DNA of 63,128 nucleotides from a virus (IMGVR_UViG_3300025266_000001:1-63128); one strand, 5' to 3'. Shown: positions 13,458 through 46,925, counted from the stretch's first letter. Numbers and translations are program-made. The notes: generated by a model from the letters alone, not told the origin.

Positions 13458-13460
13458 ATA

Positions 13461-22400: not shown

Positions 22401-22664
22401 ATAGATCTTCTTCAGGGATATGAAAACCAAACGGATATGAAGAGATATAATCCGAGTCTTTGGGCAGATACTTTTGGACCAAACTCTCCCGACTACTACT
22501 CCAATCAGCAGAAGCTAAAAGAGAAGAGTAACCTTAGAAAAGAAAAACAAAGATTAAAAGATCTTGAGAATGGATATTATCCTTTAAAGAAAAAAGGATT
22601 GTTTAGTGGACAAAAGAAAAAGGGATTGTTTAGCGGGCAAAAAAGAAAAGGACTGTTTGATTAA
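13461..22664 (+). CDS. Giant internal virion / polyvalent-type protein with zincin HExxH domain
   Basis: 3067 aa; Gly/Ala hydrophobic segment near the N-terminus; PHEIFH...EERLAE metallopeptidase motif; four RQQK motifs; no RNAP DxDxD loop recognised. Confidence 0.65.
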   Translation: MNEDYLLELYSFLGTQDQTFSQDVAFEQFVLDMGNESYAGNIRGFLAEKDPNFGKDVSLDEFLIDIKKKDGVEVVDSVSEAGPLDLQQPSVTKEKITEEDFFQGGFGDALRAFDSISPIGLGDFVDDMARSIASGRAQGLTSENAADLMIYGAGSSEEDIESFLEANKNSQNYGASAEMQDYQRIYEEEGKGVWGVVKGLAHNPSVLNEVILTSLSSLANNSDAMIAGGAVIGTSAGVGALTAGTAATAVVPVVGTVVGAAAGAYSGAVAAMPYAFGAASAMVEMGATFSELLQEELGNQEMTAENVREILEDPEKFTSIRNKAIARGAIIGTLDAFTGKVASGVGAKILTSSAKKSVTGMATRGGVMKSIGTGAGIESIGGSAGESLARAAIGQDQDISDIMLEGVTNLPGGVRSTLQARLSKPIYKVNGKKETAQTIDELIATMTPDQLASSDIKISNDYEGRAKKIQDIIVTGKTRQLVALANPELNDATLDAITALELQVKSFENNKTETGKSKVSELKAAIADLQEIQLADEVSQDVKNTFESLESSEQIQRKTEAGRVLLEEKTTALGPDSQENVSITDEEITQRALEIFSKEKPISNNNINKQYNQLSPKLKLTYVEQASDIMQEEAEDQGLTEFNFTEEDINERAAILLNEDLQGSKLQVEDNESVVGTSVDKKGRTVTYISKTTKKDGVTKTSFNFNRDDKDASQRGAAGVTLDEGLPDGYKVSENDAIEGYEITKVYEVREGDNGNNAATVEFTSPEESFRGEVVLEETNEVAKTPQKETQASDKVDEINKRREEELDSKAGRVFPITIENTKENSNLIKEKKNQEKKIDEINAKYDSEIANLTNEEQADIETFFSPDSKVDDTNTLSGSNLGINRNKAPKLNSQQNKNKNRLVRIAEMGAKAIAKVLPDVRMVLHESNEEYLRFAKEGKGRAEYHPENNIIHINLSEATTSTVPHEIFHAVLINKIKGDPAIAKAAEAMMLSVRKSLSNNSELAQKIDKFAAAYTGTQEQFQNEERLAELIGILSSAEAFKGLSKPTKNIIIQWLKDFAKKYGIKIGSDFGKKDSDVIDLLNTIARKTRTGEEIEESDIKSLEELDSGTNPVGTPTKIEPSKSRQQKIKFKDSYNKSLVNSSLSIDLNALIEDIHTKNQKVWFWVADQLGIDKELGLDGGPSFAHQNPNEIWASGMKLKAIEKNIAETDYLFIISGSPTQSQLFNKKVYDNTIEKLGDFNTFKDQAISTNAKSEIIQVLEAHDSWASLREDSTTDTAAKKKTPNKEAIDKKIGTGRKKFLYALGKTQNTPNTKFTQYMNSIDGYTDQNTFRDGFYRENDFKQNDIMLVLKPTGVQAGSNHSTYENTVLGEVVGVPDTKIDASEIMPNEMRIKMEGKPRNNTSQSVAPYGSGRRNIEPKSKSATRQQKSYKKSDLSSKNMIGFLDSLENALGINENGEQIDSGDGVIPKFINNGIIDKDLLAGVLLYEAPQRVLFISVNPTLEVVNFLELLNSQLNDKLILGTISYIKDQLPYLEKTKNIVDEKMGIMEDLGGSKKASLSDKIKSQQTAQSSLALKMKVGKAMTETINKTYDAIWKKYIEEDNGTKSLDNKSPSVRQQKDDYKPNDPVIVTRPVEVINAPKGVFVNVGMIEGQTDVEISQETIESRLPKDVKIIKSKVKKKEVGETEDTLLLKLSRPLTNTEMKDFLVSNKQQAIGQMVDGKGILYGNDQTEIDDNWGGEFSPQYFPTFNGTVLKSSPKARQQKDNERESSLERAMSEIDNIISKSKKRGTKFSKIPQNVVNYLQGTKVYEESTDVQREQMVRDVRELLGIKEKKAPSVKRILGDLKSAKTFTLTDKQLVIKTIKDLNRGANTAVKSFRIASQILAKEFTGMVKSGNLTIRQSAALVRKFSKVDMLSDASIENFVEYMARVVNNADYLNQISKARKLASRAKKNITKKIGIADAISNQLRTIFSIKPTLIPESVFQNYLSLLEMFGENAAVLSPSNISEVNEMTQDILRVMDEEFSMVEELAQRYEAYDTKVEKDGNINFAETVKNMLNENLIDETEADLMMKHRSSIVPSVEKTVKTEAEIQAEKDQVIKNILESKKVSSSSLPSRDEVLLAKKFKSLVKNKEVLNNLSLEDLNQIEKLIQNINNGYLPHLSQIMTEKMNAIIDGNKLSSAIKSAKIPRFSKMYAKLKNIILRNKRGAISEAIRRNPLYYIDQVFGNFKSKAIFNSLFERSSVAQEKFSVDLKSENGKIDKAEQEVFKSFKRDGNKTLISKFKQMVYMIQLEHDSNIGNPEVNQASGFIKKTIEKIDAGETTFTMDDAVMLQEIYDKFSFKDSNGKSLEIDIDKLYKSFNKAEVESIKTIQEVNRGLGEKAVFTSAIIRGDKISPRDNYVHLNVLADTKSEASVAPTTISDFNKSLRPSTKAKSLIKRQGVTSAINFDIYASARKGVKGVLLDYHLTEPIRTARRTIIQAEAALKGNKTRVDTGDRETLTAIKEAFNEVVENLLTNSYTETSIGSEALKWIQKNGYRAILASAPRWVAELSSNAAFAMITNPVSFIAGSKFGVRFLNSDVASKSMRALGSKQTTRVYPNDDMSARMVDSRLLNQTEGVRGGRAEGKVKNKLKQIWNTTGKKYQGAVSVVADGLISTPDKIVMRPMWFGKFSNEFKKITGISPDFDKISEQDEAYMSKYELELNQSTKVADETSVMTGSTANPFMGILKGTSNPNQHITVKAFNAFNNFMTTFLIYEYVTARTGIVNAIGRGHLTKTKGAQLLAGSVTRMVMYTMMSQVLSEALGGLAEDEPEEPKDIEKKLGQAFASTFSSMLFGRDFGNSTKAIVNWGLEEFNKEYLDGLRDGDYDVYKDSIQYQIVPKSKSGKGTSIGDWLVNMSASLGPMVKTIDLILKKATEGPKKTEGAIQRRSDEISIRIPLEVLGNTGFIPMYKDVRKLVLKSMYDGMAQKAAASKDKKQRAIDLLQGYENQTDMKRYNPSLWADTFGPNSPDYYSNQQKLKEKSNLRKEKQRLKDLENGYYPLKKKGLFSGQKKKGLFSGQKRKGLFD
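22587..22661 (+). repeat. 27-nt coding tandem repeat (KKKGLFSGQ, about 2.8 copies)
   Basis: C-terminus KKKGLFSGQKKKGLFSGQKRKGLFD. Confidence 0.85.
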
Positions 22665-29824: not shown

Positions 29825-30562
29825 TTATAATATTTCATCTACATAAAAGAACCGGATGTCCTCTGTTGGATTATCTCCATAGAATCTATGGTATTGGGTT
29901 ATCGCTCGGTCAACCTTCTCCTCGCCCCTTCTAATGAACTCCTGAGAGGGTCTGAAGATGCCTAACTTACCGTTAGTCTTGTCTACAACATAAAAAATAA
30001 GAGGTTTTCCAAATAAAGTTTGGTATATGTAGCACTGACTGTCGTAGTTATACTTCTTAGCTGAGTATTTAAAATCAGCAATCTTACTCGTGGTTTTTAG
30101 ATCAATTATTTTATCCGTACATAAAATATCAGCCTTTCCTTTCCAAAGAACTCCCTTGATTTCCTTAATCATCGGAACCTCGTACCGGTTTCCTTCTTGT
30201 CTAATACCTTCAAAAAACGGCAGGTTTTGCATCATCGTATCTACACAACCCTTTATCTCTATACCTTCCTTCTCTAGCATTATAATATCTTGTGAGCTTT
30301 CGGTAACCGCTTCTTTATAGGCTTTCGTGACCCGTGAAGATACGTCAATAAATTTTGTCTCCTTAGCCTTCTCCGGCTCAAGAATTAATTGATGGAAGTA
30401 TCTACCTTTATGGAAGTTTATATTGTCTGGCTGAGGTTTTCTAAAATCTACAGGATTATCAAGCAAGGATCCTATGTCAGAGTTAGATAAAAATTGCTTG
30501 CCAAACGCTCCGTAATAGTCCTCGTCAATTAGAAGTCTATTAATAGTTTTTTGGTCCATCAT
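29825..30562 (-). CDS. RecE/ExoVIII-like PD-(D/E)xK exonuclease (DUF3799-like)
   Basis: LSNSDI, GRYFHQLILEP, WKGKADIL, IIDLKTT, YNYDSQCYIY. Confidence 0.8.
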   Translation of the reverse strand: MMDQKTINRLLIDEDYYGAFGKQFLSNSDIGSLLDNPVDFRKPQPDNINFHKGRYFHQLILEPEKAKETKFIDVSSRVTKAYKEAVTESSQDIIMLEKEGIEIKGCVDTMMQNLPFFEGIRQEGNRYEVPMIKEIKGVLWKGKADILCTDKIIDLKTTSKIADFKYSAKKYNYDSQCYIYQTLFGKPLIFYVVDKTNGKLGIFRPSQEFIRRGEEKVDRAITQYHRFYGDNPTEDIRFFYVDEIL

Positions 30563-31218
30563 TTTGCAGATACCGTTTTAGTGATGGTGGCTTTTACATT
30601 TGCAGAGATCTTGTACTTACGGGATAATGAATCAATAATACGCTTTACGCCCATAGACTTGCTTTCTTCAACGTATTTTAAAACCCTATCCCAATTAGCA
30701 TCACCCGTTTTTAATACAATCAGTCCTGCATCTACTGCAGTTGGTTTTGATATAGGTAAAACCGCTATTGGTTCTGAAGCTTCAGTTTCCGGCAAGTCTT
30801 CACCCGCATAGATATATATACCCATTCCGTGCATAGCTAAATTTTTAACTAGACACCTCATTAGTGTTTTATTGATATCAAAAGTCGTGGCGGGTGCCAC
30901 TTCCTTATCTCCATAACGAGTAGTGTAAGAATACCCCTCTTTTTTCATTGACTTGTTGGCACCGTCCATTACCGGTAGCCACATTGATAATGTCTCTCCC
31001 GCAATTGTAACTGTACTATGACACATAAATCCAAGGTTTTCATCATACTCGATTCCCCCCATTTCATATGTAGCGTCTGGACACGCTTTTTTAACTTCGC
31101 TCCAAGCCCAAGCCCAAGACAAATATGATAGGTTGTTTTTCTTATCAACCTTAGAGTTGACATTAATCGCTGACAATTTTTCAAAGGTAGTCGCTTCCTT
31201 TTCTTCTGATTTTGACAT
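30559..31218 (-). CDS. Sak/Rad52-like single-strand annealing protein (DUF1071-like)
   Basis: LSYLSWAWAW, MWLPVMD, DINKTLMRCLVKNLAMHGMGIYIYAGEDLP. Confidence 0.85.
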   Translation of the reverse strand: MSKSEEKEATTFEKLSAINVNSKVDKKNNLSYLSWAWAWSEVKKACPDATYEMGGIEYDENLGFMCHSTVTIAGETLSMWLPVMDGANKSMKKEGYSYTTRYGDKEVAPATTFDINKTLMRCLVKNLAMHGMGIYIYAGEDLPETEASEPIAVLPISKPTAVDAGLIVLKTGDANWDRVLKYVEESKSMGVKRIIDSLSRKYKISANVKATITKTVSAK

Positions 31219-32436: not shown

Positions 32437-32590
32437 AGGTTGTGGGGGGTATATTATACCTTATCGGGTTCAATTAAATAATGCCTAAAGATATTCCCGT
32501 TACGTTGCTACGCAAGAGGCTTTACTTTGCTATATCTAAAGGCACTATCGTTGTTATCCCGTAATTGTGGTGTTATCCGACGTTAGGTGC
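32437..32590 (+). other. Candidate attI-like insertion site at the array start
   Basis: The first GTTAGGTGC core (32582) has no upstream hairpin arm; TGTTATCC direct repeat at 32552 and 32571. Confidence 0.4.
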
Positions 32591-32592
32591 AA

Positions 32593-32883
32593 TTAATAAG
32601 CACCGTTACTAAACCAATATTTCGTTTCACAATCTTCGCAACAATGTACTTCATCCCAATCCCAATAACTACCATCTAAAGTAGAACCTTTGCTTTCATT
32701 AAAGCATTTAGGATATTGCTCGTTGTTCACTACATAAGTTTCTGTTGTGTCATTGTGTACTGTGCCACAATTAGGGCAAGAGTATTCTTTACCCTTAACT
32801 GCACCTAACAATGTATATAAATCATTGCATTTAGGCATTGGCTTAGTTCCGTTCAATTTATGTTCAATATCTGCTGTATTCAT
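32593..32883 (-). CDS. Cassette gene, CxxC zinc-ribbon-like
   Basis: Starts in the att loop; LYTLLGAV arm peptide; CPNC...CEDC. Confidence 0.75.
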   Translation of the reverse strand: MNTADIEHKLNGTKPMPKCNDLYTLLGAVKGKEYSCPNCGTVHNDTTETYVVNNEQYPKCFNESKGSTLDGSYWDWDEVHCCEDCETKYWFSNGAY

Positions 32884-32943
32884 AGTTCTGTGTTTATTTA
32901 TTAATAATGCAACGCTTCATATACTAGTCCGTTATGTGTAATG

Positions 32944-33225
32944 CTACCCAAAGTTATCTATGTCAGCACTATCTCTATATTTCATTTCACAACCAATACA
33001 CTCAATATCTTCTAGTTCACTTTTTGTCATTTCACCTAAGTGATGTATGTTTTTTTCGTGTTCGGGTATCTTTTCACCGCACGCACTACACATAACACCA
33101 GATAAAATTAATTGCTCTTTTAGTGCTTCCCAAATAAGTTCAGGGCTATTAAATTCTGACCTAAATTCATCTTCAAAAGTATCTTCAATCTTACTTACTT
33201 TTTTTATAAATTCTGCTTTTTTCAT
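32944..33225 (-). CDS. Cassette gene, CxxC
   Basis: EQLILSGV arm peptide; CSAC...CIGC. Confidence 0.75.
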   Translation of the reverse strand: MKKAEFIKKVSKIEDTFEDEFRSEFNSPELIWEALKEQLILSGVMCSACGEKIPEHEKNIHHLGEMTKSELEDIECIGCEMKYRDSADIDNFG

Positions 33226-33285
33226 TTGTGTATTTTTATTTAATTTGTTTCTTAATTCTACGCAACTAATCTTATCTGCGATACG

Positions 33286-33513
33286 TTATGTGGCATTTAC
33301 TGCACGTCTAACATCAACCCAATATTTTCTAACAGAAACCACTCCCCAATTTTCTGCTTGTAATTCAATTTCGTCAATTACCTTATTTACTACTTTATTT
33401 GTTTCTTTATCGCTTGGCATATAACCATTGTCTTCATCCCATTCATATTGTTGAAACTTTTCTAATAAATCTTCTGCTTTTAATTTTGGACTCATAATAA
33501 AATAACGCCACAT
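33286..33513 (-). CDS. Cassette gene (MSPKLKAEDL; paralog of 24745-25047)
   Basis: Likely start at the second Met; stop TAA lies in the GTTA core. Confidence 0.75.
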   Translation of the reverse strand: MWRYFIMSPKLKAEDLLEKFQQYEWDEDNGYMPSDKETNKVVNKVIDEIELQAENWGVVSVRKYWVDVRRAVNAT

Positions 33514-33655
33514 AACAAAATATAAAAATAATAGCCTAGTTACGTGGTCTTATTAAAGGCTATTGTGTATTAATTAATTTAGTTTATAATTGAATATTTG
33601 TTTACTTTTTATCGGCTACTATTATTATACTAACCGTTACCAAAAATAAAAAATA

Positions 33656-33985
33656 CTAATCTTTCATCTTTTTAATAAAGTCCGTGAAGTGTAGAGTGTA
33701 TGCAGGATGAAATCCATTGTGTTTTAAAATACTTTCATCCATTATTATATCCATTGGTGTTTTAGGTATAATTTTGTCTTTTACTTCTTCTGTTAATGTT
33801 TCGTCAAGGTATTTATAAAACTCAATTCCAAGTCCGTCAATATCTTCATTGGTTAGTGTTTTACCAGCTTCTTTCCAATTTTTTCTAATAAAGTATCTAA
33901 AAATGTCTGTCATAATTATCCGTATTTTTTTACATTTGGTAACACCGTATAAAATCCATTGCGAAAAGCAACGTATCTTATACAA
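33656..33985 (-). CDS. Cassette gene, hypothetical
   Basis: Probable start at internal MTDIF inside the body. Confidence 0.65.
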   Translation of the reverse strand: MYKIRCFSQWILYGVTKCKKIRIIMTDIFRYFIRKNWKEAGKTLTNEDIDGLGIEFYKYLDETLTEEVKDKIIPKTPMDIIMDESILKHNGFHPAYTLHFTDFIKKMKD

Positions 33986-33995
33986 TTCGTTATGC

Positions 33996-34211
33996 TTAAT
34001 TTTTTAGCCAACATTCTATCCATAAGTTAAGCCAAAGTACTTGTATATCTATTGCGAAATGGTATTTACCTATATTGTTTTGTTTGTTAACTTTTAGCAC
34101 AAATCCAAAGTCTAGCCAATCCCAAATTATGTGAGGTTTAAAAAACATAAGCATAACACCGTATAAAGTCCATTGCTTTTTATCTTTTTGGTCACTTATT
34201 TCTTTACTCAT
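33996..34211 (-). CDS. Cassette gene, hypothetical
   Basis: MSKEI...KQWTLYGV arm peptide; Trp-rich. Confidence 0.7.
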   Translation of the reverse strand: MSKEISDQKDKKQWTLYGVMLMFFKPHIIWDWLDFGFVLKVNKQNNIGKYHFAIDIQVLWLNLWIECWLKN

Positions 34212-34295
34212 AATTTCTGTTTATTAATTAGTTTTGTCGCTTAATTAAAGGTTGCAACGTACCTTATACAGTCCGTTAGCAAACATAATTTGCTA

Positions 34296-34523
34296 CTATT
34301 CGCATTCATTACAATGTTCTTTTCTTCTTCCATTTTCATCGACTGTATAACCATATCCATCACAATTACCGCAAACAACGGATTTGCTAACAACGGGTAT
34401 CGTTAATGCTGTGTTGCAAGTTTCAATAATCATTTTACCCCATTCCTCATCAACTCGACCAAGTTTTATACCTGTTAAAAGTTGTACTTTTACTTGCTCA
34501 ATATCGTTTTTTAATTCTTCCAT
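34296..34523 (-). CDS. Cassette gene, DnaJ-type CxxCxGxG finger
   Basis: ALTIPVVS arm peptide; CGNCDGYG...CNEC. Confidence 0.7.
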   Translation of the reverse strand: MEELKNDIEQVKVQLLTGIKLGRVDEEWGKMIIETCNTALTIPVVSKSVVCGNCDGYGYTVDENGRRKEHCNECE

Positions 34524-34592
34524 TTTTATTAAGTTTTGTTATTATTAAATCGCACTAACCATACCCAAATACGTTGTGCTTAATACGGAATA

Positions 34593-34916
34593 CTAATAAA
34601 GGTATGGGTGCAAAGTTTGCAAACTATCTTTTTTTACTTCTTCCCAGATTATTTGATTATCCCAAGTGCAAGGCACAAACACTTGTTTGCAGTATAATTT
34701 AACTCCTGTTTTTCTAAGTTCAGATATTACATCTTCCATCTCTTCGTCACTCATATTGTTTGCGCCTTTTATGTTCTTGCTTACAAAGTCAGCGACTTGC
34801 AAACTCTCAGGTTGTTCGCATACATAACAACGGGTTTGTTTATCCGAGCAAGAAAAAAGTACTAAGCACAACAATGTATAAAGTGCATAGCGAGTAAGCG
34901 TTTTAATTAAGTTCAT
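34593..34916 (-). CDS. Cassette gene, putative lipoprotein
   Basis: ALYTLLCLVLFSC: the att arm supplies part of a hydrophobic signal ending in a lipobox-like FSC. Confidence 0.65.
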   Translation of the reverse strand: MNLIKTLTRYALYTLLCLVLFSCSDKQTRCYVCEQPESLQVADFVSKNIKGANNMSDEEMEDVISELRKTGVKLYCKQVFVPCTWDNQIIWEEVKKDSLQTLHPYLY

Positions 34917-35006
34917 TTTGTATCTATTTAAGTTCTTTATAATTCAATATTTCGTGCTGTTTAGGTCGCTACGACACCTTATACTAGACGTTAGAGTGCA
35001 TTGTGC

Positions 35007-35240
35007 TTAAATTACATCACCACATTTGGAGCAGGCGGTTATATCTACGCCACAAGTTATATCTGCTTGGTAATCGTGTTCGCACAACGTACCCTTCGGC
35101 ACACTAACACCAGATAAAATTAATTGCTTGGCTTCTAGCTTTTCTACATAAGACTCTAATTGGTCAACGTATTCTAAAAATCTCATTTTAGAACCTTCAT
35201 AATACATTACTCTTTCTGGTTTTGTTATTTCTTTACTCAT
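35007..35240 (-). CDS. Cassette gene, hypothetical
   Basis: MSKEI...KQLILSGVS; CEHDY...CSKCG. Confidence 0.7.
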   Translation of the reverse strand: MSKEITKPERVMYYEGSKMRFLEYVDQLESYVEKLEAKQLILSGVSVPKGTLCEHDYQADITCGVDITACSKCGDVI

Positions 35241-35294
35241 CGTTTATTTATTTAATTCGTTAATATTTCCGCAACTAATCTTATCTGTATAACG

Positions 35295-35441
35295 TTATAC
35301 ACAATAAATTAAACCTAACACTATCAATCCAACAAATAAAGTCATACCAACATAGTGTTTAATTAATTCTCTTGTCTTGTTAATATTTTTACCCTGTAAT
35401 TCTAATAAAGCTAATTTCATATAATATCCTCCTTGTAACAT
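35295..35441 (-). CDS. Cassette gene, 48-aa membrane peptide
   Basis: Hand-translated MLQGGYY...TLFVGLIVLGLIYCV; stop in the GTTA core. Confidence 0.5.
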   Translation of the reverse strand: MLQGGYYMKLALLELQGKNINKTRELIKHYVGMTLFVGLIVLGLIYCV

Positions 35442-35504
35442 AATTTTGTTTTTTAAATGGTTTAATTAAAAGTGTATAACATCGTACATAATTAATAAAT
35501 AAAA

Positions 35505-35645
35505 CTAACTGCGTGCTAGCTTTGTTTCAAGTTCGTATAGTGTAGTTAAACTAAGTACTGTATGGTTTCCATCATTTAAGCAGTCTCTAACAAGTCTAAT
35601 TAAGTACCTTCTTTCTGCTTCTGTTATTTTAATTTCGTGTTTCAT
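35505..35645 (-). CDS. 46-aa ORF inside an att loop
   Basis: Hand-translated MKHEIKITEAERRYLIRLV...KLARS. Confidence 0.5.
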   Translation of the reverse strand: MKHEIKITEAERRYLIRLVRDCLNDGNHTVLSLTTLYELETKLARS

Positions 35646-35691
35646 AATTCGTAATTTTAAAATTCATATTCTAATTCGCCGTTATGCGCAA

Positions 35692-35898
35692 TTAAAGTCC
35701 GTCATTTAACTCTTGTGGTTCTTTATTACATTTAGCACATATATACCCATATAGATGGTCTTTCACTTTTCCGAGTTCTTCTACATCCCAAAGTTCCTCA
35801 CCGTCTTTTTCAGTCACTTTTACTTTAAACTTTTCATTCCAAACATTGTATATCCTAATAAATTCATCAGAACCACATTCACATTTATAATATTTCAT
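35692..35898 (-). CDS. Cassette gene, Cys motifs
   Basis: YKCECGS...CAKC; fills the body exactly. Confidence 0.7.
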   Translation of the reverse strand: MKYYKCECGSDEFIRIYNVWNEKFKVKVTEKDGEELWDVEELGKVKDHLYGYICAKCNKEPQELNDGL

Positions 35899-35953
35899 TT
35901 TTAAATCAATTAAAAGCGCATAACAACGTATAAAATTAATGCGCTTGGTTATA

Positions 35954-36214
35954 CTACTTTTCTAGTACATATCTAAGGTGTTTAACCTCTTTTCCTTTCG
36001 TGTGCACTTGTATTCCTATGCTTGTAGGTGTGCCGTTATTGTCAGCCATTCCGCAAACACTTACAACCTCGCTTACTTCAATTACTTCGTGCTGTTCTTT
36101 TTCTACAACCATATAAGGGTAGTTAATAGAACCGTTTTTAAAATCCTCAATCTCTTTTTTTGTAAAATATTTCATTGTTTTTTGTTTAAGTTTATTATTA
36201 ACTAACCCTAACAC
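35954..36214 (-). CDS. Cassette gene, hypothetical
   Basis: Likely start MKYFTKKE. Confidence 0.65.
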   Translation of the reverse strand: MLGLVNNKLKQKTMKYFTKKEIEDFKNGSINYPYMVVEKEQHEVIEVSEVVSVCGMADNNGTPTSIGIQVHTKGKEVKHLRYVLEK

Positions 36215-36341
36215 AAAATATAATGCATAGCTAGTATTGGTTTATTTATTAAGTTGTTCGGTATTTCCGAACTACTGTATTATTTATTTTGGTTCGTGTA
36301 TTGTAACGCTACGCACCATATTCAAAACGTTATGTGTAATA

Positions 36342-36545
36342 CTACTTATCTCGCCAAGTCCATCCTAAACACCATTTGCAAAACAGTCGGTTTATTAACT
36401 TTGGTTTTTTTGTGAAATTAAATTCAATCGTATTTACTTTTGTCCCTGTAATTTCGTAACTACCTACAACTTTAGGTGTTTCAATTTGATTTAATGTAAA
36501 TGTGTTATTTTCCATTTTAATTAAGTTTGTGCTAAACGTTAGCAT
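36342..36545 (-). CDS. Cassette gene, hypothetical
   Basis: Likely start MENNTF; KKPKLINRLFCKWCLGWTW. Confidence 0.65.
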   Translation of the reverse strand: MLTFSTNLIKMENNTFTLNQIETPKVVGSYEITGTKVNTIEFNFTKKPKLINRLFCKWCLGWTWRDK

Positions 36546-36553
36546 TAATATTA

Positions 36554-36739
36554 TTAATCACAACCGCACTCGTAGTTATTATTAGTGTTCATTTCCTCTT
36601 TGCAGTCTCGGCATCTAAGTATTATTCGTGTGGTTAGTTGGTTCAACCGTTCATTTATTAAGTCTGTTAAGTCTTTTTTTGATAATCCACTTCTAATATG
36701 AAAATTCAATTCATTTAAAAAAAGTTCTTCTCCTGTCAT
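36554..36739 (-). CDS. Cassette gene, hypothetical
   Basis: CRDC...CGC; lies in a degenerate unit. Confidence 0.6.
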   Translation of the reverse strand: MTGEELFLNELNFHIRSGLSKKDLTDLINERLNQLTTRIILRCRDCKEEMNTNNNYECGCD

Positions 36740-36794
36740 AATTCATTTATTTAATCCGTTAAAAATCTAATCATATACTCAACGTTGTAGCCAA

Positions 36795-37049
36795 TTATTT
36801 GCTATCCTCTATAAATCGTTTAACTATTCTCTCCAAAGCAAGGTCTTTGTAATTGGTAGGCATAGCGTATTTCAATACCGCAAATAACTGTTCGCTTTGC
36901 CCTACAACATCGGCTATAATTAATTGCTGGGCTTCTGCTCCTTTATGAAATCCGTGCATAAAACCATTGCATTCATCTTGGTTAAATCCTAACTTAATAT
37001 AATCATTAAGTGCTTTTTGAAACTCTTCTGTGTATTTTTCGTTTGTCAT
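36795..37049 (-). CDS. Cassette gene, hypothetical
   Basis: QQLIIADVVGQSEQL arm peptide. Confidence 0.7.
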   Translation of the reverse strand: MTNEKYTEEFQKALNDYIKLGFNQDECNGFMHGFHKGAEAQQLIIADVVGQSEQLFAVLKYAMPTNYKDLALERIVKRFIEDSK

Positions 37050-37106
37050 TATCTATAAATTTTAGTGTTATTATTTTGCAACTAATCATAGCCGTGAGCG
37101 TTAGAG

Positions 37107-37343
37107 TTAATTGCCCTTTTCAGGTGTTATCCTTTTACCACATTCGCAACTTAAATAAGTCCAATCAGAGTTTACATAGTATTTGCATTCGTGGACGGGC
37201 AACGTAACACTAACACCAGATAACTTTAATTGCTCTTTATGGTATTGTTTAGCAAATTCGGTCATTGCATTTAGTATACTTTCATTACTATTACCTACCT
37301 CTACACCGTTTAAGTGTTTGTTTAATATTATTTGTTTATTCAT
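37107..37343 (-). CDS. Cassette gene, hypothetical
   Basis: EQLKLSGVS arm peptide; HEC...CECG. Confidence 0.7.
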   Translation of the reverse strand: MNKQIILNKHLNGVEVGNSNESILNAMTEFAKQYHKEQLKLSGVSVTLPVHECKYYVNSDWTYLSCECGKRITPEKGN

Positions 37344-37396
37344 TGTATTTTATTTAATTCGTTAATATTTCCGCAACTAATCTTATCTGTATAACG

Positions 37397-37585
37397 TTAG
37401 CAACCATTAGACCACCAAGTTTCGCACTTTTTACAAGCATAAGAATTTTCTGTAAGTGTTGTTTTATGTCCTTTAGATTTACATTTATGGCAAACGGAAT
37501 TGCTAACAACACCTATATTTAATTGCTTACTTTCTTCCGTTTCTCTAAGGTTTCTAATTAATAATTTACTGTTTCCTTTTCTCAT
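37397..37585 (-). CDS. Cassette gene, CxxC
   Basis: KQLNIGVVS; CHKC...CKKC; stop in the GTTA core. Confidence 0.7.
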   Translation of the reverse strand: MRKGNSKLLIRNLRETEESKQLNIGVVSNSVCHKCKSKGHKTTLTENSYACKKCETWWSNGC

Positions 37586-37640
37586 AACTTTATTATTCTA
37601 ATACGCAACTCTCGTTATCTGTACAACGTTATATTTAATG

Positions 37641-37925
37641 CTAGATTCCAATGTATTCAAAAACGTGTCCAACAAATTCACCTTTTTGATATTGGTAAGT
37701 TCCAATGTATTTTCTATCCACACCCATATCATATTTGATTTCGTGACCTGTTCCAAATAATTCAAAAATCCTTTCCTCTTTTCCATTGTCTGTTTTAACC
37801 ATTACCCACATACAGGGCTTAAATGTTTTTTGGTCTTGTTGCACCGAAAGTATTTCAGCGTCTTTAGGTATTTGCAATTTTGTAAGTTCTTCAAACTCTA
37901 ATTCATATTTCCAAATCGTGTACAT
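37641..37925 (-). CDS. Cassette gene, conserved-looking phage protein
   Basis: TIWKYEL...AEILSVQ...GTGH...YIGTYQ...HVFE pattern. Confidence 0.75.
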   Translation of the reverse strand: MYTIWKYELEFEELTKLQIPKDAEILSVQQDQKTFKPCMWVMVKTDNGKEERIFELFGTGHEIKYDMGVDRKYIGTYQYQKGEFVGHVFEYIGI

Positions 37926-37955
37926 ATTTATTTTGTTTTTAATTAATTAACCGCA

Positions 37956-38093
37956 CTAAAATATAACACCAGATAAAATTAATTGCTTATTTCTATCATT
38001 TAAAATCGTATATGCTTCAGCTGTAATGTCTCCGTTCTGGTGTAATCGCTTTAAAATACGTTCAGTTTCTTTTAATTGTTTTTTGTTCTTCAT
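37956..38093 (-). CDS. 45-aa ORF starting in an att loop
   Basis: Hand-translated MKNKKQLKE...KQLILSGVIF*. Confidence 0.5.
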   Translation of the reverse strand: MKNKKQLKETERILKRLHQNGDITAEAYTILNDRNKQLILSGVIF

Positions 38094-38142
38094 TGTTTAT
38101 TTTGTTAAGTTATTATTCACGCAACTAATCTTATACAATTCG

Positions 38143-38316
38143 TTACCCCTCCACATTCAGTATATCACATTTTCTTTTACCAATGTGTAGTTCTACTAAA
38201 GCCGTATCAATCAAGCTGAAGTCTTCTGAATAGTCATAGAACAGACCTTCAATCTCCAGTACTTCTCTTACTGTTGTACAGTTTGCTATGGCTGATATAA
38301 ATTCTTCTTTAGTCAT
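38143..38316 (-). CDS. Cassette gene, 57 aa
   Basis: Hand-translated MTKEEFISAIANC...NVEG; stop in the GTTA core. Confidence 0.55.
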   Translation of the reverse strand: MTKEEFISAIANCTTVREVLEIEGLFYDYSEDFSLIDTALVELHIGKRKCDILNVEG

Positions 38317-38439
38317 TTAGATTGGTTTTGTGGTGGTGGTGTTGGGTAATAAAAATTAACAATACTTTAAAGATGTTTATCAATTTACTAATCTTTCCAT
38401 AATTTTTTCTTTCCTTATTACTATTCGTTGTAAAACATA

Positions 38440-38688
38440 TTATTGACCTAATCTTTTTTGTTTCATCGAGCAACCTAAACATTGTTGTTTACATTCTTCA
38501 CTTTCCTTTACGTTAACTGCATAGCAATAAGACGATTTTACAACACCGCATAAATCAAATGCAACCATATACCCCATCTTAAAACCAAACGCACCGTCAA
38601 GGTTGTTTATATATCCCTTTTTTTCAGCTTCGTTACAGAGGTTATCCATTACTTTAGCCTGTTCTTTTGTTAATTTTATTTTATCCAT
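38440..38688 (-). CDS. Cassette gene, hypothetical
   Basis: AFDLCGVV arm peptide; CKQQCLGC. Confidence 0.7.
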   Translation of the reverse strand: MDKIKLTKEQAKVMDNLCNEAEKKGYINNLDGAFGFKMGYMVAFDLCGVVKSSYCYAVNVKESEECKQQCLGCSMKQKRLGQ

Positions 38689-38700
38689 AATTATATTTAA

Positions 38701-38877
38701 TTACACTTGATTTATACGTACAACGTTGTAATCACATTTAACAACATCGGGCTTTTCTTGTTTTTTTATATAATCATTCGCTTTTTTTTCAGATGTAAAT
38801 CGTTTAGTATATCTTTCTATTATCGTTTCATAGTGTACTACCCAAACACCCCTTCTTAATTTTTGTTTTGTAAACAT
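38701..38877 (-). CDS. 58-aa cassette gene crossing the 38725 core
   Basis: Hand-translated MFTKQKLRRGVWVV...KCDYNVVRINQV*. Confidence 0.5.
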   Translation of the reverse strand: MFTKQKLRRGVWVVHYETIIERYTKRFTSEKKANDYIKKQEKPDVVKCDYNVVRINQV

Positions 38878-38940
38878 TTTTATAAAATTTTAGTTAATAT
38901 TTCCGTACTACTTACAACAACATATATAAACAATTAAAAA

Positions 38941-39090
38941 TCACTTCTTGCCATTTATTAACCATAGTTCTACTAAAACCATAGCAGCAATTAAGCAAAT
39001 TGTATTTTCAAATCCTTGAAAGTGTTTAAGTGCTACCAGAATTAAAGTGATTACTACTGCTACTATTGCGTCTGTTATTCTTTTGTTCAT
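38941..39090 (-). CDS. 49-aa two-helix membrane peptide inside an att loop
   Basis: Hand-translated MNKRITDAIVAVVITLILVALKHFQGFENTICLIAAMVLVELWLINGKK. Confidence 0.55.
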   Translation of the reverse strand: MNKRITDAIVAVVITLILVALKHFQGFENTICLIAAMVLVELWLINGKK

Positions 39091-39136
39091 TTTATCTAAT
39101 TTTTAAAAGTTCATATATGAGTACGTTATGCCACAA

Positions 39137-39415
39137 TTAAAGGTTTTTAGCCTTCCATTCTAATTGCTCTATTACACCATTACAATCTAAATCATACTGT
39201 TCAGCTATGTGCTTACCTAAAACCTTTAACAGTTCACTTTGTTGGCTAACACCAGATAAAATTAATTGCTCTTTTAGTTCTTTATTTTCAGATTTTAAGC
39301 TAGAATTATTATCCATTAATTTAATATTGTCTTTAGCTAAATATTCTGCTCTTTTTTTATAATCTATCTCTTTTTTCATTGTATTTTTATTTAATTCTGT
39401 TAATAATTTACGCAA
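39137..39415 (-). CDS. Cassette gene, coiled-coil
   Basis: Likely start MKKEIDY; EQLILSGVSQQSEL. Confidence 0.7.
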   Translation of the reverse strand: MRKLLTELNKNTMKKEIDYKKRAEYLAKDNIKLMDNNSSLKSENKELKEQLILSGVSQQSELLKVLGKHIAEQYDLDCNGVIEQLEWKAKNL

Positions 39416-39610
39416 CTAACCCTAACCGCATACGCTACCTACGACACTACTCTTCGTCTTTCAATTCCTTTTCCACTTCCTTTAGCCAATTATTTATAAC
39501 CTTGTCACACCATAAGTCTATTAATAAAGTTGATCCTACTACAACCCTAACCAATGTAAAAGGAAGGTGTAGTAATGTAGTGGTGTACAGTGTTGTTTTT
39601 TTAATTATTA

Positions 39611-44128: not shown

Positions 44129-44280
44129 AATTAGTCGAGTATTAGTCATTTATTCGTTATTTATGATGCAATGTGCTGAACATCAGCTACTTACGTCGGT
44201 TTTCTAAGAGGGAGTATCTCTCCCATAGAACAAATCTCGACTAATTCTAGACTATAACCTAATTAATTCTCGACTAATTC
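44129..44280. repeat. CTCGACTAATT motif cluster
   Basis: Copies at 44236 and 44269 (+), 44129 (-), degenerate at 44247. Confidence 0.7.
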
Positions 44281-44428
44281 TGTTTATGTGGGAATTAACT
44301 CACATTTATCCGCACCATATTTCTAGGACAGAGTTTAAGCAAGGTCTGAAGGGGTTTAGTTTCTCAGTGTTTGCGGGGGTTGTGGGCGCATTGCTAGTCG
44401 GATATTGTGCGGACAAGCGCGGAAGCGG

Positions 44429-44485
44429 GCGCAGGCGGTGGCGGTGGGGATACTGGTTGCGGGTGCGCAGGCGGTGGCGGTGGGG
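44429..44485. repeat. 21-nt G-rich direct repeat in the GC-rich strand-switch region
   Basis: GCGCAGGCGGTGGCGGTGGGG at 44429 and 44465. Confidence 0.85.
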
Positions 44486-44641
44486 TGTATCAAAACGCCA
44501 AAAAAACGGAGCGGAAAGTTTCAAATCAACAAGGGGCTATCACAAAAAAAATCGTTTTCCTACAAGGGATCCTCCTCGTAGATCTATATATTACCCAAAC
44601 CCTCTGGATATCTAATAAATTTTTTTTCGTATCTTTGTGGG

Positions 44642-44800
44642 ATGGATGATTGGTCTCTTGAGTTACAGAACAGGTTGGGTATAGGGTTAGCGTTTGGTTG
44701 GTCTTGGTACGAGCAGGATTCGGAGTTTGATTATTCGGAGTTCATTTTATTTTTAGGGGTAGTAAGTTTAAATTTTAAATACGAAAGATATGAAGTATAA
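44642..44800 (+). CDS. 52-aa hypothetical protein
   Basis: Hand-translated MDDWSLELQNRLGIGLAFGWSWYE...; follows TATCTTTG at 44630. Confidence 0.55.
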   Translation: MDDWSLELQNRLGIGLAFGWSWYEQDSEFDYSEFILFLGVVSLNFKYERYEV

Positions 44801-44978
44801 GAGTATGGGTGGGTTGACTGTCAAGGACGGGAGATTGGTTAACGATAGATCTGCGGGTTTATCTGGCATTTCTGAAGCCAACAATTTAAGGAATATGAAG
44901 AGTCATTCTGACAAGGTTGGTATGATTTCTGATGGAATATTATTGGCTGAAGCCAAGAAGAAAATGATGGGAATGTAG
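44790..44978 (+). CDS. Hypothetical protein
   Basis: GLTVKDGRLVN; followed by a terminator. Confidence 0.7.
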   Translation: MKYKSMGGLTVKDGRLVNDRSAGLSGISEANNLRNMKSHSDKVGMISDGILLAEAKKKMMGM

Positions 44979-45002
44979 TTTTATTTTGATTGATTGATTG
45001 TG

Positions 45003-45030
45003 AGAGGGGATTAGGGTCCCCTCTTTTTTT
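45003..45030 (+). terminator. Intrinsic terminator
   Basis: AGAGGGGA...TCCCCTCT plus T-run. Confidence 0.85.
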
Positions 45031-45055
45031 GTTTTATACTTTTTTCTCCGTCTAA

Positions 45056-45088
45056 TTCTCGACTAGTTCTCGACTAGTTCTCGACTAA
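45056..45088. repeat. 11-nt tandem repeat x3 (TTCTCGACTAR)
   Basis: TTCTCGACTAG TTCTCGACTAG TTCTCGACTAA. Confidence 0.9.
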
Positions 45089-45117
45089 TAGTCTCTTTAA
45101 GGTGTTGGTTTTAACAC

Positions 45118-45204: not shown

Positions 45205-45344
45205 AAAACGATTTTGAAATAATAAATAAATATATATATATACAATATCTCCACCCCCCCCCTAGAGAGAAAAAAAAACAACATTTTTTTTATATGAATT
45301 AATTGTCTACCTTTGTCTTTATTATAAATAAAAAATCAAATCAA

Positions 45345-46925
45345 ATGTCAGAACTAGGATACTCTCCAAAGAACTTATTGTTCGATGACACGGGCAGAAA
45401 AAAACTAATTAAAGGGATTACTACAATTGCTTCAGCAGTTAAGTCGACACTTGGACCTTCGGGTCAGACAGTGCTGATTGAATCGCCTCACCACACACAC
45501 GGAATAACTGTCACCAAGGATGGAGTAACTGTCGCTAAGGCGGTAGACTTATTAGATCCTGTCGAGAACCTTGCGGTTCGTATGATGAAGGAGGCAGCCG
45601 ATAGGACGGCAACGGAAGCGGGTGATGGTACGACAACGGCTATTGTCTTAACTGAAGCACTTGTTAGTTCTGGGTTTGATTTACTTAATCAAGATGGCAT
45701 CAACAAGACTGAGGTATTGCGTGAGCTTGTATCTCTAACCAATGATGTTTGTAAGAACTTAAAGAAGAAATCTAAGCGGGTTACTCAAAAAAGGTTAAGG
45801 GATGTGGCTACTATATCGGCTAACAACGACAAGAACTTAGGAAAGATTATATCTGATGTCTATTCAAAGGTTGGCAAGACGGGTATCGTTACTGTTGATA
45901 AGTCACAGACGAGCACCACTCATTATGAGACAACAAATGGGCTGAAGGTAGACAGGGGTTATTCGAGTGATCTGTTTATAAATGATCACCGGAAGGACGA
46001 GTGTATTTTAGAAGACACATATGTACTTGTGAGTGACGCTGAGATAAATAACTTACTTACTATTGAGAGCATACTAAAACCAATTATACAAGACGGCAAG
46101 AGATTGTTGATCATCGCGCCTTGTTCTCAGAATGTGCTAAACACTTTATCGGCAAATGTAATGAAGGGCGGGTTGAAAATATGTGCTATCACGCCACCGA
46201 ACTTTGGGTACAAGCAACACGAGCTAATGAATGACATTGCGCTTACTGTTGGGGCTACATATTTTTCTGAGAAGACTGGTGATGACTTAAGTATTATAAC
46301 TGTTGCTGATTTGGGGAGTGCCTCGAAGGTAATTGTATCTAGGGACTCTACTATTATTGTAAAGGATACCATAGAGGATGAGCCTGCGGTAACTGAGAGG
46401 GTTGAGCAATTGTGGGCAGCCCACAAGATGGCGAGCAACAAAACAGATAGAGACTTCATACTATCACGGATAGCTTCCCTTACGGGAGGTGTTGGTGTGA
46501 TATATGTTGGAGGAGCCACTGACCTAGAGCAGAAGGAGCTTTATGATCGTGTGGATGATGCGGTGTGTGCTGTTCGTTCGGCACTTGAAGATGGTATTCT
46601 TCCGGGTGGAGGGATAGCACTTCTAAATGAGTCAATAAACCTACCATCTAGTGCCGCGGGACATATTTTAGGTGCAGCACTTAGGGCTCCATTTAATCAG
46701 ATTTGCGAGAACGCCGGTGCTAATCTTATAACACCACCACTTAAAGCATATGATGAGGGATGGGACATAAAAAACAATTCTGAGTATGGCAATATGTACA
46801 GGATGGGGATCATTGATCCTTTGAAGGTAACTAAGTCGGCGCTGCAGAGCGCGGTATCGGTTGCTGTAACAATATTATCTACCAATGCTATTATCACAAT
46901 GGCACGGACATATGAGACAAATTAA
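45345..46925 (+). CDS. groEL: Chaperonin GroEL-like
   Basis: VKSTLGPSG, TVTKDGVTVAK, AGDGTTTA, ATISANND, GILPGGG, GIIDPLKVT; ATG at 45345 lies downstream of the promoter motif. Confidence 0.95.
   Translation: MSELGYSPKNLLFDDTGRKKLIKGITTIASAVKSTLGPSGQTVLIESPHHTHGITVTKDGVTVAKAVDLLDPVENLAVRMMKEAADRTATEAGDGTTTAIVLTEALVSSGFDLLNQDGINKTEVLRELVSLTNDVCKNLKKKSKRVTQKRLRDVATISANNDKNLGKIISDVYSKVGKTGIVTVDKSQTSTTHYETTNGLKVDRGYSSDLFINDHRKDECILEDTYVLVSDAEINNLLTIESILKPIIQDGKRLLIIAPCSQNVLNTLSANVMKGGLKICAITPPNFGYKQHELMNDIALTVGATYFSEKTGDDLSIITVADLGSASKVIVSRDSTIIVKDTIEDEPAVTERVEQLWAAHKMASNKTDRDFILSRIASLTGGVGVIYVGGATDLEQKELYDRVDDAVCAVRSALEDGILPGGGIALLNESINLPSSAAGHILGAALRAPFNQICENAGANLITPPLKAYDEGWDIKNNSEYGNMYRMGIIDPLKVTKSALQSAVSVAVTILSTNAIITMARTYETN

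Follow-up and report, generated by a model that had tools for sequence, protein, structure and literature searches.

A probable integron-like cassette array in a complete phage genome, with counterparts in Bacteroidota

The viral record IMGVR_UViG_3300025266_000001 of IMG/VR is a complete phage genome with direct terminal repeats, and the window referred to below is this whole stretch of 63,128 bp. Positions 32582-39440 of its minus strand are occupied by a tandem array of about 20 units of 219-586 nt, each carrying one small open reading frame (ORF) of 48-107 aa and each joined to the next by an imperfect hairpin between the triplets AAC and GTT. We consider it probable that this region is a recombination-site cassette array of an integron-like system that is present in Bacteroidota and in their phages. 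The anatomy and covariation of the sites, the link between sites and a recombinase, and cassette-precise polymorphism in relatives are all observed.

Anatomy of the array and its sites

Cutting the region at successive AAC cores delimits 20 units, and in all 20 the longest ORF lies on the minus strand, which is also the strand that folds. Read along this strand, a junction consists of yyyyyYAAC, a spacer of 5-6 nt, an arm of 16-17 nt, a loop, the second arm, a spacer of 2-3 nt and GTTRzzzzz; the body after each GTTRzzzzz closes with zzzzzYAAC, a 9-14 nt complement of its own start. GTTR is constant in the sites, RRRY is not retained, and fixed G·T wobbles take the place of bulged bases, which are absent. 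Loops span from 5 nt (33934-33998) to about 150 nt, and the long ones contain a leader rich in A and then an ATG with as many as about 50 codons, in a reading frame that continues through the 3' arm, with a recurrent QLILSGV motif, into the body. Because the loop usually carries both leader and start codon, the site is also the 5' end of a gene. Fourteen strong hairpin sites lie in 32.8-39.1 kb and the remaining sites were read by eye or found by a model, with the caveat that about five of the roughly 20 junctions are degenerate, being half sites or an AAC that directly abuts GTT.

The preliminary description of this DNA had claimed about 20 units, most of them bounded by unit-specific inverted pairs, and all 11 of the GTT...AAC pairs that it listed are present at the positions given, together with a twelfth at 37396/37500. 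The genome holds 27 pairs of GTT-N5/N5-AAC 8-mers, 14 of them in 32.5-38.9 kb, and the 21-mer of the commonest arm occurs five times with at most three mismatches, versus no occurrence in 100 shuffles. When 22 sites are aligned (four of them from the window and the remainder, 18, from other phage contigs), 92% of the cells of the 17-bp stem are paired and 15 of the 17 pairs have changed on both sides. The covariation score of the stem is 0.503 versus 0.182 in shuffles, none of 500 of which reached 0.503, and slid controls gave 0.07-0.14. Two stem positions are G·U in 19 and 21 of the 22 sites. Whereas the flanking cores of one hairpin pair only through TAAC/GTTA in this alignment, the two cores that bracket one body (window plus phage loci) pair over at least 8 contiguous bp in 13 of 32 cases, versus 2 of 83 same-hairpin pairs and 0.8% of random pairs; these body-bracketing cores share a recurrent G·T at position 11. 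The complementarity of each inverse core to its own cassette start, not to the adjacent core, is as initially described.

The minus strand was also expected to fold better, and several comparisons agree with this. Under symmetric scoring of the minus (coding) strand, G·T and T·G mismatches number 198 versus 79 for A·C and C·A, and 64 of 84 sites favour that strand by wobble scoring. A covariance model built from phage sites only (R1) gives 17 matches in the 63-kb genome, all within 32.8-39.3 kb and 15 of them on the minus strand. It scores site 16 (34148-34284) at 94 bits on the minus strand versus 17.5 on the plus strand, and the compact site 17 (33934-33998, loop 5 nt) at 54.7 versus 21.8 bits. 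As isolated single-stranded DNA (ssDNA), the minus strand is the more stable in five of six sites, with -8.3 versus -4.8 kcal/mol for site 17.

The remaining features are given from the 5' end of the folding strand, all of them on the minus strand. Site 1 (39241-39433) has arms at 39412-39428 and 39253-39269 and AGC in place of AAC; its loop holds the start of an ORF at 39137-39379, and the model matches it partially (39241-39329, 16.1 bits). Site 2 (38916-39127) is an AAC-hairpin-GTT junction with a loop of 153 nt and a hairpin-scan score of 34, site 3 (38542-38727) has a 26-bp stem and a loop of 120 nt (score 41), and the 134-nt loop of site 4 (37965-38144) has a 45-aa ORF (37956-38093) ending in QLILSGVIF. 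The cassette body at 37641-37925 is a complete DUF7352 ORF (Pfam PF24043, E 2.7e-24), bracketed by GTTATATTT (37959-37967) and AAATATAAC (37628-37636). Site 5 (37498-37637) is weak, at 27.2 bits. Site 6 (37212-37398) has a loop of 139 nt and arms of the CAGATAAG type; relative to these, the arms of site 7 (36906-37102, score 32), which read CGGCTATG.../...TATAGCCG, carry compensating changes. Degenerate junctions follow at 36528-36793, namely a half site at 36783-36793 and an AAC directly abutting GTT at 36528-36547. Site 10 (36203-36338) has a loop of 76 nt and a model score of 91 bits, and beyond it lies the body 35951-36201 with its ORF at 35954-36175. Two further degenerate junctions, with the bodies between them, occupy 35472-35955: a 3' half site (35925-35955) and a weak site (35472-35690; 19.3 bits at 35582-35690).

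Arms of the CAGATAAG type recur in site 13 (35106-35296, loop 143 nt, score 32) and site 19 (33094-33287, loop 146 nt, score 32). Site 14 (34863-34999) scores 70.8 bits and its predicted stem is present in the minimum-energy ssDNA fold; site 15 (34389-34575) has a hairpin score of 25, and sites 18 (33507-33645) and 20 (32800-32940) score 83.3 and 93.6 bits with the model. The last cassette closes with the terminal inverse core GCACCTAAC (32582-32590), after which there is neither an integrase gene nor a ACCCCTATA-type junction. Among 10 cassette proteins searched against Pfam and PHROGs, the DUF7352 protein (phrog_3848) alone had a significant match. Many cores read GTTATG/CATAAC and so contain start-like and stop-like triplets; ORFs of the bacterial arrays described below begin near this ATG, and in one unit of the window (32934-33095, plus strand) an ORF on the non-coding strand runs exactly from the ATG in GTTATG to the TAA in ATAAC.

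Between about 44 kb and 24 kb, the genes are encoded on the minus strand. Small early ORFs precede the array, and 3' of it are genes for a DnaA-C-like helix-turn-helix protein, a Sak-type single-strand annealing protein (PF06378, E 2.6e-43; 30559-31218), a PD-(D/E)XK exonuclease, a primase/helicase and a helicase; directly downstream, the array is followed by the genes of the annealing protein and exonuclease (29825-31218, minus strand). At 45303-46925 on the plus strand is the gene of a GroEL-like chaperonin (phrog_5725, E 9.6e-129), and the interval between the Sak and GroEL genes is about 14 kb here versus about 8 kb in relatives by the Sak protein. The interval from which the minus-strand early genes and the GroEL gene diverge contains direct repeats of a CGACTAATTCTCGACTA-type unit (44238-45089) and a G+C-rich GCGCAGGCGGTGGCGGTGGGG repeat (44367-44485), which may be promoter or origin iterons. 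A 3067-aa protein without an assigned function is encoded at 13461-22664 (plus strand). The runs that hold the phage come from marine metagenomes, and no RNA dataset is among the runs listed. Array DNA has weak matches to phages of Cellulophaga, Polaribacter and Tenacibaculum; megablast of window positions 30-42 kb against cultured phages gave zero matches. A search for tRNA genes found none, and Rfam gave two weak hits only, below the gathering score and outside the array. The phage is probably strictly lytic.

Related arrays and a linked recombinase

The sites do not follow the phage backbone. Relatives of the Sak protein are encoded in 511 IMG/VR contigs; in 80 loci fetched from these (1,318,954 bases), R1 had no match, and a separate pattern scan found essentially no sites. 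The exact 21-mer is present in 24 other viral contigs, most of which, in the parts compared, show no proteins similar to those of the window; many of these contigs have arrays with covarying arms. The preliminary description had pointed to Bacteroidota as a place for further sites, and 40 of 151 evenly sampled Bacteroidota genomes match R1 (E<=0.001), with scores up to 79.6 bits and including arrays on contigs of 0.26-2.6 Mb. Scanning genomes with the 21-mer led, through one contig of 1166 nt, to a Bacteroidales metagenome-assembled genome (G001), which R1 matches at 15 places and whose site-bearing contig C33 is phage-like. On contig C108 of the same genome, a tyrosine recombinase followed by an IS91-family-like transposase (L123, 246-2262) was set aside as probably a separate mobile element unrelated to the arrays, the site match there having fallen to 24 bits.

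Four bacterial arrays were analysed in detail, giving 37 intervals and 41 comparisons of adjacent cores. Their sites are uniformly oriented, and 30 of the 37 units have a single ORF opposite to the folded strand. Body-bracketing cores are complementary over at least 8 bp in 23 of 37 intervals versus 2 of 41 adjacent cores; this own-end complementarity holds across bodies of up to 3.6 kb, and the arrays share a G·T at box position 11. The pattern is that of integron cassettes. Since the folded strand is antisense to the ORFs in bacteria, the conserved fold there cannot be an mRNA structure. A bacterial array in G045:C33 also contains a 65-nt short site followed by a 79-nt ORF-less unit in at least four copies (L140; 6353-6613, 7610-7871, 9066-9327 and 16591-16851) and a fifth short site at 18716-18780.

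Six of the ten genomes examined have an array at most 3.2 kb from a Xer/IntI-like tyrosine recombinase (G069, 0.8 kb; G045, <0.5 kb; G108, 1.4 kb; G056, 1.6 kb; G065, 3.1 kb; G109, 1.3 kb). These array-linked proteins belong to PF00589 and have 260-310 aa. Three of them score 219-237 bits with NF040815 (XerA/integron integrase) and 200-216 bits with the integron-integrase model TIGR02249, the latter in two stretches that skip the IntI-specific insertion; overall, the array-linked recombinases of relatives reach 158-216 bits with TIGR02249, below its cut-off of 265. Against solved structures, one array-linked recombinase matches XerA at 143 bits and IntI4 (2a3v) at 135 bits, again in two stretches, the alignment skipping about 36 residues. 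In G069, G045 and G109, the recombinase gene stands after the array, on the folded strand and divergent from the cassette ORFs, which is the classical integron layout; the arrangement in G108 and G056 is reversed.

Five viral records were checked for a recombinase beside sites. In the complete phage G152 (78 kb), an array of 11 sites (57.9-63.7 kb) is directly followed on the same strand (56.97-57.4 kb) by the gene of a 269-aa recombinase that shares 39-45% identity with its bacterial counterparts; this order of array and recombinase is repeated in contig L024. The cultured Polaribacter phage Freya likewise has the recombinase, with R1 sites upstream of the gene (79.9 bits in Freya_10). Integrons proper have an attI site and a Pc promoter beside intI; in Freya and L024, ACCCCTATA comes after the last YAAC, and about 45 nt then lead to the start of the recombinase. 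Sites beside an integrase, whose absence from host genomes the preliminary description had named as a refutation, are therefore found in six of ten bacterial genomes as well as in two uncultured phage contigs and Freya. In a 72-kb phage record (G153:C1) with six R1 sites at 12620-15606, a 433-aa ORF with a weak PF00589 match (31 bits; 17372-17899) lies 1.8 kb downstream on the same strand and may be a divergent recombinase. Methyltransferase genes recur as phage-array cassettes, in L023 (6060-6990), G152 (L141, 4157-4876) and Polaribacter phage P12002L (L151, 3249-6127), which is consistent with an anti-restriction cargo.

Freya also provides the clearest view of cassette turnover. Ten plaque-purified isolates on one host strain have between 0 and about 4.9 kb of cassette DNA, located immediately upstream of the 'integrase' (L142/L143 in Freya_10); in the parts compared they are 99.7-100% identical elsewhere, and their lengths differ through the cassette region alone. 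Freya_1 is cassette-free, with the junction ...GTTTACAAC|ACCCCTATAAC... leading to the integrase ATG, and Freya_2 has kept two cassettes (+842 nt). Relative to Freya_10, Freya_8 lacks positions 1-902 and Freya_9 lacks 3794-4099, in each case exactly one cassette, and Freya_6 carries a cassette that is not in Freya_10. The cassette missing from Freya_9 comprises spacer, hairpin with start codon, GTTAGCAAC, body and GTTGCTAAC, and the AAC triplet is the sole sequence common to the flanks of this junction. The junctions of Freya_1, 2, 8 and 9 relative to Freya_10 all fall immediately after AAC, so that related phages do differ by whole units at the core.

Signs of exchange extend to the window array itself, which was compared with contigs assembled from four co-occurring marine metagenome runs. 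One contig (depth 218) joins window position 37394, at the AAC edge of site 6, to 38141 with five ambiguous letters, CGTTA, skipping two units. The body 35951-36201 is 100% identical over its 251 nt to part of a co-occurring 1695-nt phage contig that is otherwise unlike the window; a 30-mer from this body has no match in IMG/VR. A homologue of the DUF7352 cassette in L106 is 81% identical and has a different self-complementary bracket, again with G·T at position 11, and seven more distant DUF7352 homologues have no bracket. The methyltransferase cassette of L023 has a 30-bp bracket, and the same bracket type surrounds different cargo in Freya_10.

Proposed mechanism and rival explanations

We propose that each site is an imperfect palindrome that would fold on one strand, the minus strand in the window. 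It combines a YAAC/GTTR outer box, extended by cassette-specific bases, with an asymmetric unpaired spacer (5-6 versus 2-3 nt), and inside these lie a stem of 17 bp, in which two G·T wobbles are fixed, and a variable loop. The folded strand would be cut at the AAC core by a Xer/IntI-like tyrosine recombinase, and cassettes (spacer-hairpin-GTTR-body-YAA) would be excised as circles, re-inserted and exchanged; such excision would account for bodies whose end is complementary to their beginning. What we infer is the chemistry (folded ssDNA being cleaved at AA|C), an enzyme acting in trans, and activity of the array in the window phage today. A crossover at G|TT, which is AA|C on the folded strand, is indicated by comparative, not biochemical, evidence, namely the Freya junctions and the CGTTA joint. 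In the phage form, the ORF lies on the folding strand and the loop usually supplies a leader, a start codon and often an N-terminal module. It is possible that site extrusion is made easier by having the folding strand as the non-template strand of an early operon with heavy transcription, which would explain the reversed polarity of the phage ORFs.

The complete window genome has no tyrosine or serine recombinase, as had been stated at the outset, nor a Y1 recombinase, and the array, with its roughly 20 junctions and 15 minus-strand model matches, is presumably dependent on an enzyme supplied in trans. The recombinase having been lost or never present, the array is the equivalent of an attC-site cluster without an integron integrase (CALIN). 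Under this proposal it would be reshuffled only with an enzyme from the host or from a co-infecting phage, and whether such mobilisation is going on at present we regard as evenly balanced.

Several observations weigh against this interpretation. The window has no homologue or remnant of the array-linked recombinase and no ACCCCTATA-type integrase-proximal junction. Four of the ten bacterial genomes have no recombinase (E<=1e-30) within 3.2 kb of the array, G011 having one at 9.5 kb, and the linked enzymes lack the IntI-specific insertion and stay under the integron-integrase cut-off. The integron-type enzyme of the preliminary description is thus borne out as a linked Xer/IntI-like recombinase and not as a canonical IntI. 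Isolated ssDNA sites fold no better than shuffles (z from -0.09 to -1.95). Recombination was not seen directly, the runs that hold the phage being available as assembled contigs. Hairpin-only modules are 96% identical between otherwise unalignable contigs, in blocks that include the arms and GTTG while the 5-6 nt 5' spacer differs, and the body 35951-36201 is shared without its hairpin. Because such blocks do not fit a single crossover point, some exchange must take place inside the arms or on the GTT side as well, possibly by rare recombination of the other strand or through homology of arm families. Finally, the polarity of phage ORFs is the reverse of that in bacterial arrays, a point on which the preliminary description is to be qualified.

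This reversed polarity makes the folded strand of the phage the mRNA sense strand as well, so an RNA role is possible. We consider it very unlikely that the stems are mRNA structures only, that is, early-transcript helices that close cistrons and present leaders for RNA stability, processing or translation, with modules moved by ordinary recombination and no dedicated recombinase. That explanation accounts for the better folding of the coding strand in phages, for leaders and start codons located in loops and for the two conserved G·U positions (19 and 21 of 22 sites); to our knowledge, Bacteroidota do not use Shine-Dalgarno-led initiation, so leader accessibility matters. It does not account for bacterial units, in which the folded strand is antisense to the ORF (30 of 37) and own-end complementarity spans up to 3.6 kb, nor for linkage to a recombinase and AAC-precise cassette indels. 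A secondary RNA role of the stems in phages is possible. The nearest functional analogue without a recombinase is the promoter/stem-loop (PeSL) cassette of T4-type phages (PMC2839356, PMC4122927), and it offers a precedent for mobile regulatory cassettes whose intergenic motifs would here give the phage's Sak annealing protein and exonuclease short stretches of homology to act on, so that genes are shuffled with no site-specific chemistry. The position of these two genes directly downstream of the array, the return of the same arm families (17-21 nt) both within the array and in 24 further viral contigs, and hairpin-only identity blocks that stop at arm edges all speak for such a mechanism. 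We nevertheless judge it very unlikely, as the 80 loci with the same Sak protein have no such sites, the flanks of the Freya_9 deletion share AAC alone, and unit-specific complementarity, covariation and recombinase linkage are left unexplained.

Loops and bodies are both flanked by inverted repeats, which would also be expected of miniature transposons or invertible segments (invertons), and invertase-controlled segments are abundant in Bacteroidota. The arms covary rather than being conserved, the mismatches, which are G·T, are biased towards one strand and not symmetric, target duplications were not seen, each array has one site orientation and no inverted variants are among the joints listed; this explanation is extremely unlikely. 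RNase III processing sites, closed-loop translation, miniature inverted-repeat transposable elements, invertons, double-stranded dif/Xer sites and IS200/IS605 ends were dropped on the grounds given for the three rival explanations. The integron-like cassette array put forward in the preliminary description is supported: relatives differ in their units with indels at the core, similar sites stand beside recombinases in Bacteroidota genomes, and a co-occurring contig joins two window positions within CGTTA.

Relation to known systems and significance

Like integrons, these arrays consist of tandem single-ORF cassettes in one orientation, separated by AAC...GTT palindromes with an unpaired spacer, in which folding of one strand is preferred; bacterial ORFs lie opposite to the folded strand, on which the recombinase gene stands at one end of the array. 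The inverse core complementary to its own cassette start, an integron hallmark, is present in 13 of 32 phage and 23 of 37 bacterial cases, and integron arrays without a recombinase also occur. The differences are equally clear. The IntI-specific insertion is missing from the recombinase; the outer box comprises 10 bp, a G·T and 3 more bp, versus 7 bp; the inner stem runs without interruption over 17 bp, its G·T wobbles being fixed and bulged (extrahelical) bases absent; and loops reach 150 nt with coding sequence, the phage ORF lying on the folding strand. An attC site proper is an imperfect palindrome, R''-L''...L'-R', whose cores read RYYYAAC/GTTRRRY and which has extrahelical bases; of these cores the present sites show AAC and a constant GTTR. 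An IntI with its specific additional domain, which a strict definition of integrons demands, is found neither in the window nor among relatives, whose enzymes lack the insertion. The array functions as an integrase-less array of integron cassettes would, and strict membership fails on the integrase domain and probably also on details of the site.

Folded single-stranded sites are also known from CTX phage, whose attP is recombined by XerCD, and modules bracketed by inversely oriented sites from the pdif modules of Acinetobacter plasmids; both systems use housekeeping Xer enzymes and dif-like 28-bp sites. In contrast, the hairpin spacers here are unequal (5-6 versus 2-3 nt), and the two halves are therefore not one double-stranded site in two orientations. 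PeSL cassettes, which have a conserved promoter and a terminator stem-loop ahead of each ORF, share hyperplastic early regions of lytic phages with small ORFs and a conserved stem-loop that are shuffled between relatives, but as described they move by homologous recombination, with no dedicated recombinase, end complementarity or AAC/GTT core (PMC2839356, PMC4122927). Unit-specific brackets, covariation and recombinase linkage exceed that description.

IntegronFinder 2 is reported to detect almost no integrons in Bacteroidetes (PMC9024848). CALINs of virulent phages with two to three predicted attC sites have been described with standard models, including one in Polaribacter phage P12002L, an attC of which was recombined by IntI1 (Qi et al., 2023, PMC9892861, section 3.4). 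R1 sites in P12002L, possibly the published attC among them, lie between methyltransferase genes. Those CALINs resemble the present arrays as integrase-less arrays in lytic marine phages with methyltransferase cassettes, but the available sections describe no cognate recombinase family, Bacteroidota counterpart or cassette polymorphism (PMC9892861). The paper on Freya takes the integrase as a sign of temperate potential, and its main text does not use the words 'cassette', 'integron', 'insertion' or 'variable region' (Bartlau et al., PMC8776804). A literature search, for which subscription journals were largely out of reach, gave no earlier description of these sites with their recombinase family, nor one of cassette polymorphism in Freya.

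It is an even question whether these arrays form an undescribed integron family of Bacteroidota and their phages. Such a family would have an insertion-less Xer-like recombinase, strand choice through fixed G·T wobbles, and phage-inverted cassettes in which the hairpin is leader and start and sometimes an added N-terminal module. Lytic marine flavobacterial phages would use it to trade early and anti-defence genes such as methyltransferases, and Freya-type 'integrases' would be array recombinases, not lysogeny enzymes.

One site model links a phage array of 20 cassettes, arrays in about a quarter of the sampled Bacteroidota, a putatively distinct recombinase clade and cultured phage isolates that differ by precise cassettes, and Polaribacter with phage Freya offers a culturable laboratory system for cassette recombination. 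If the proposal is true, the concept of an integron would come to include a new enzyme and a new architecture of the site, and the hyperplasia of early regions in marine flavobacterial phages would have a mechanism. The 'integrase' genes of such phages, now taken as a temperate sign, would then need to be reread.

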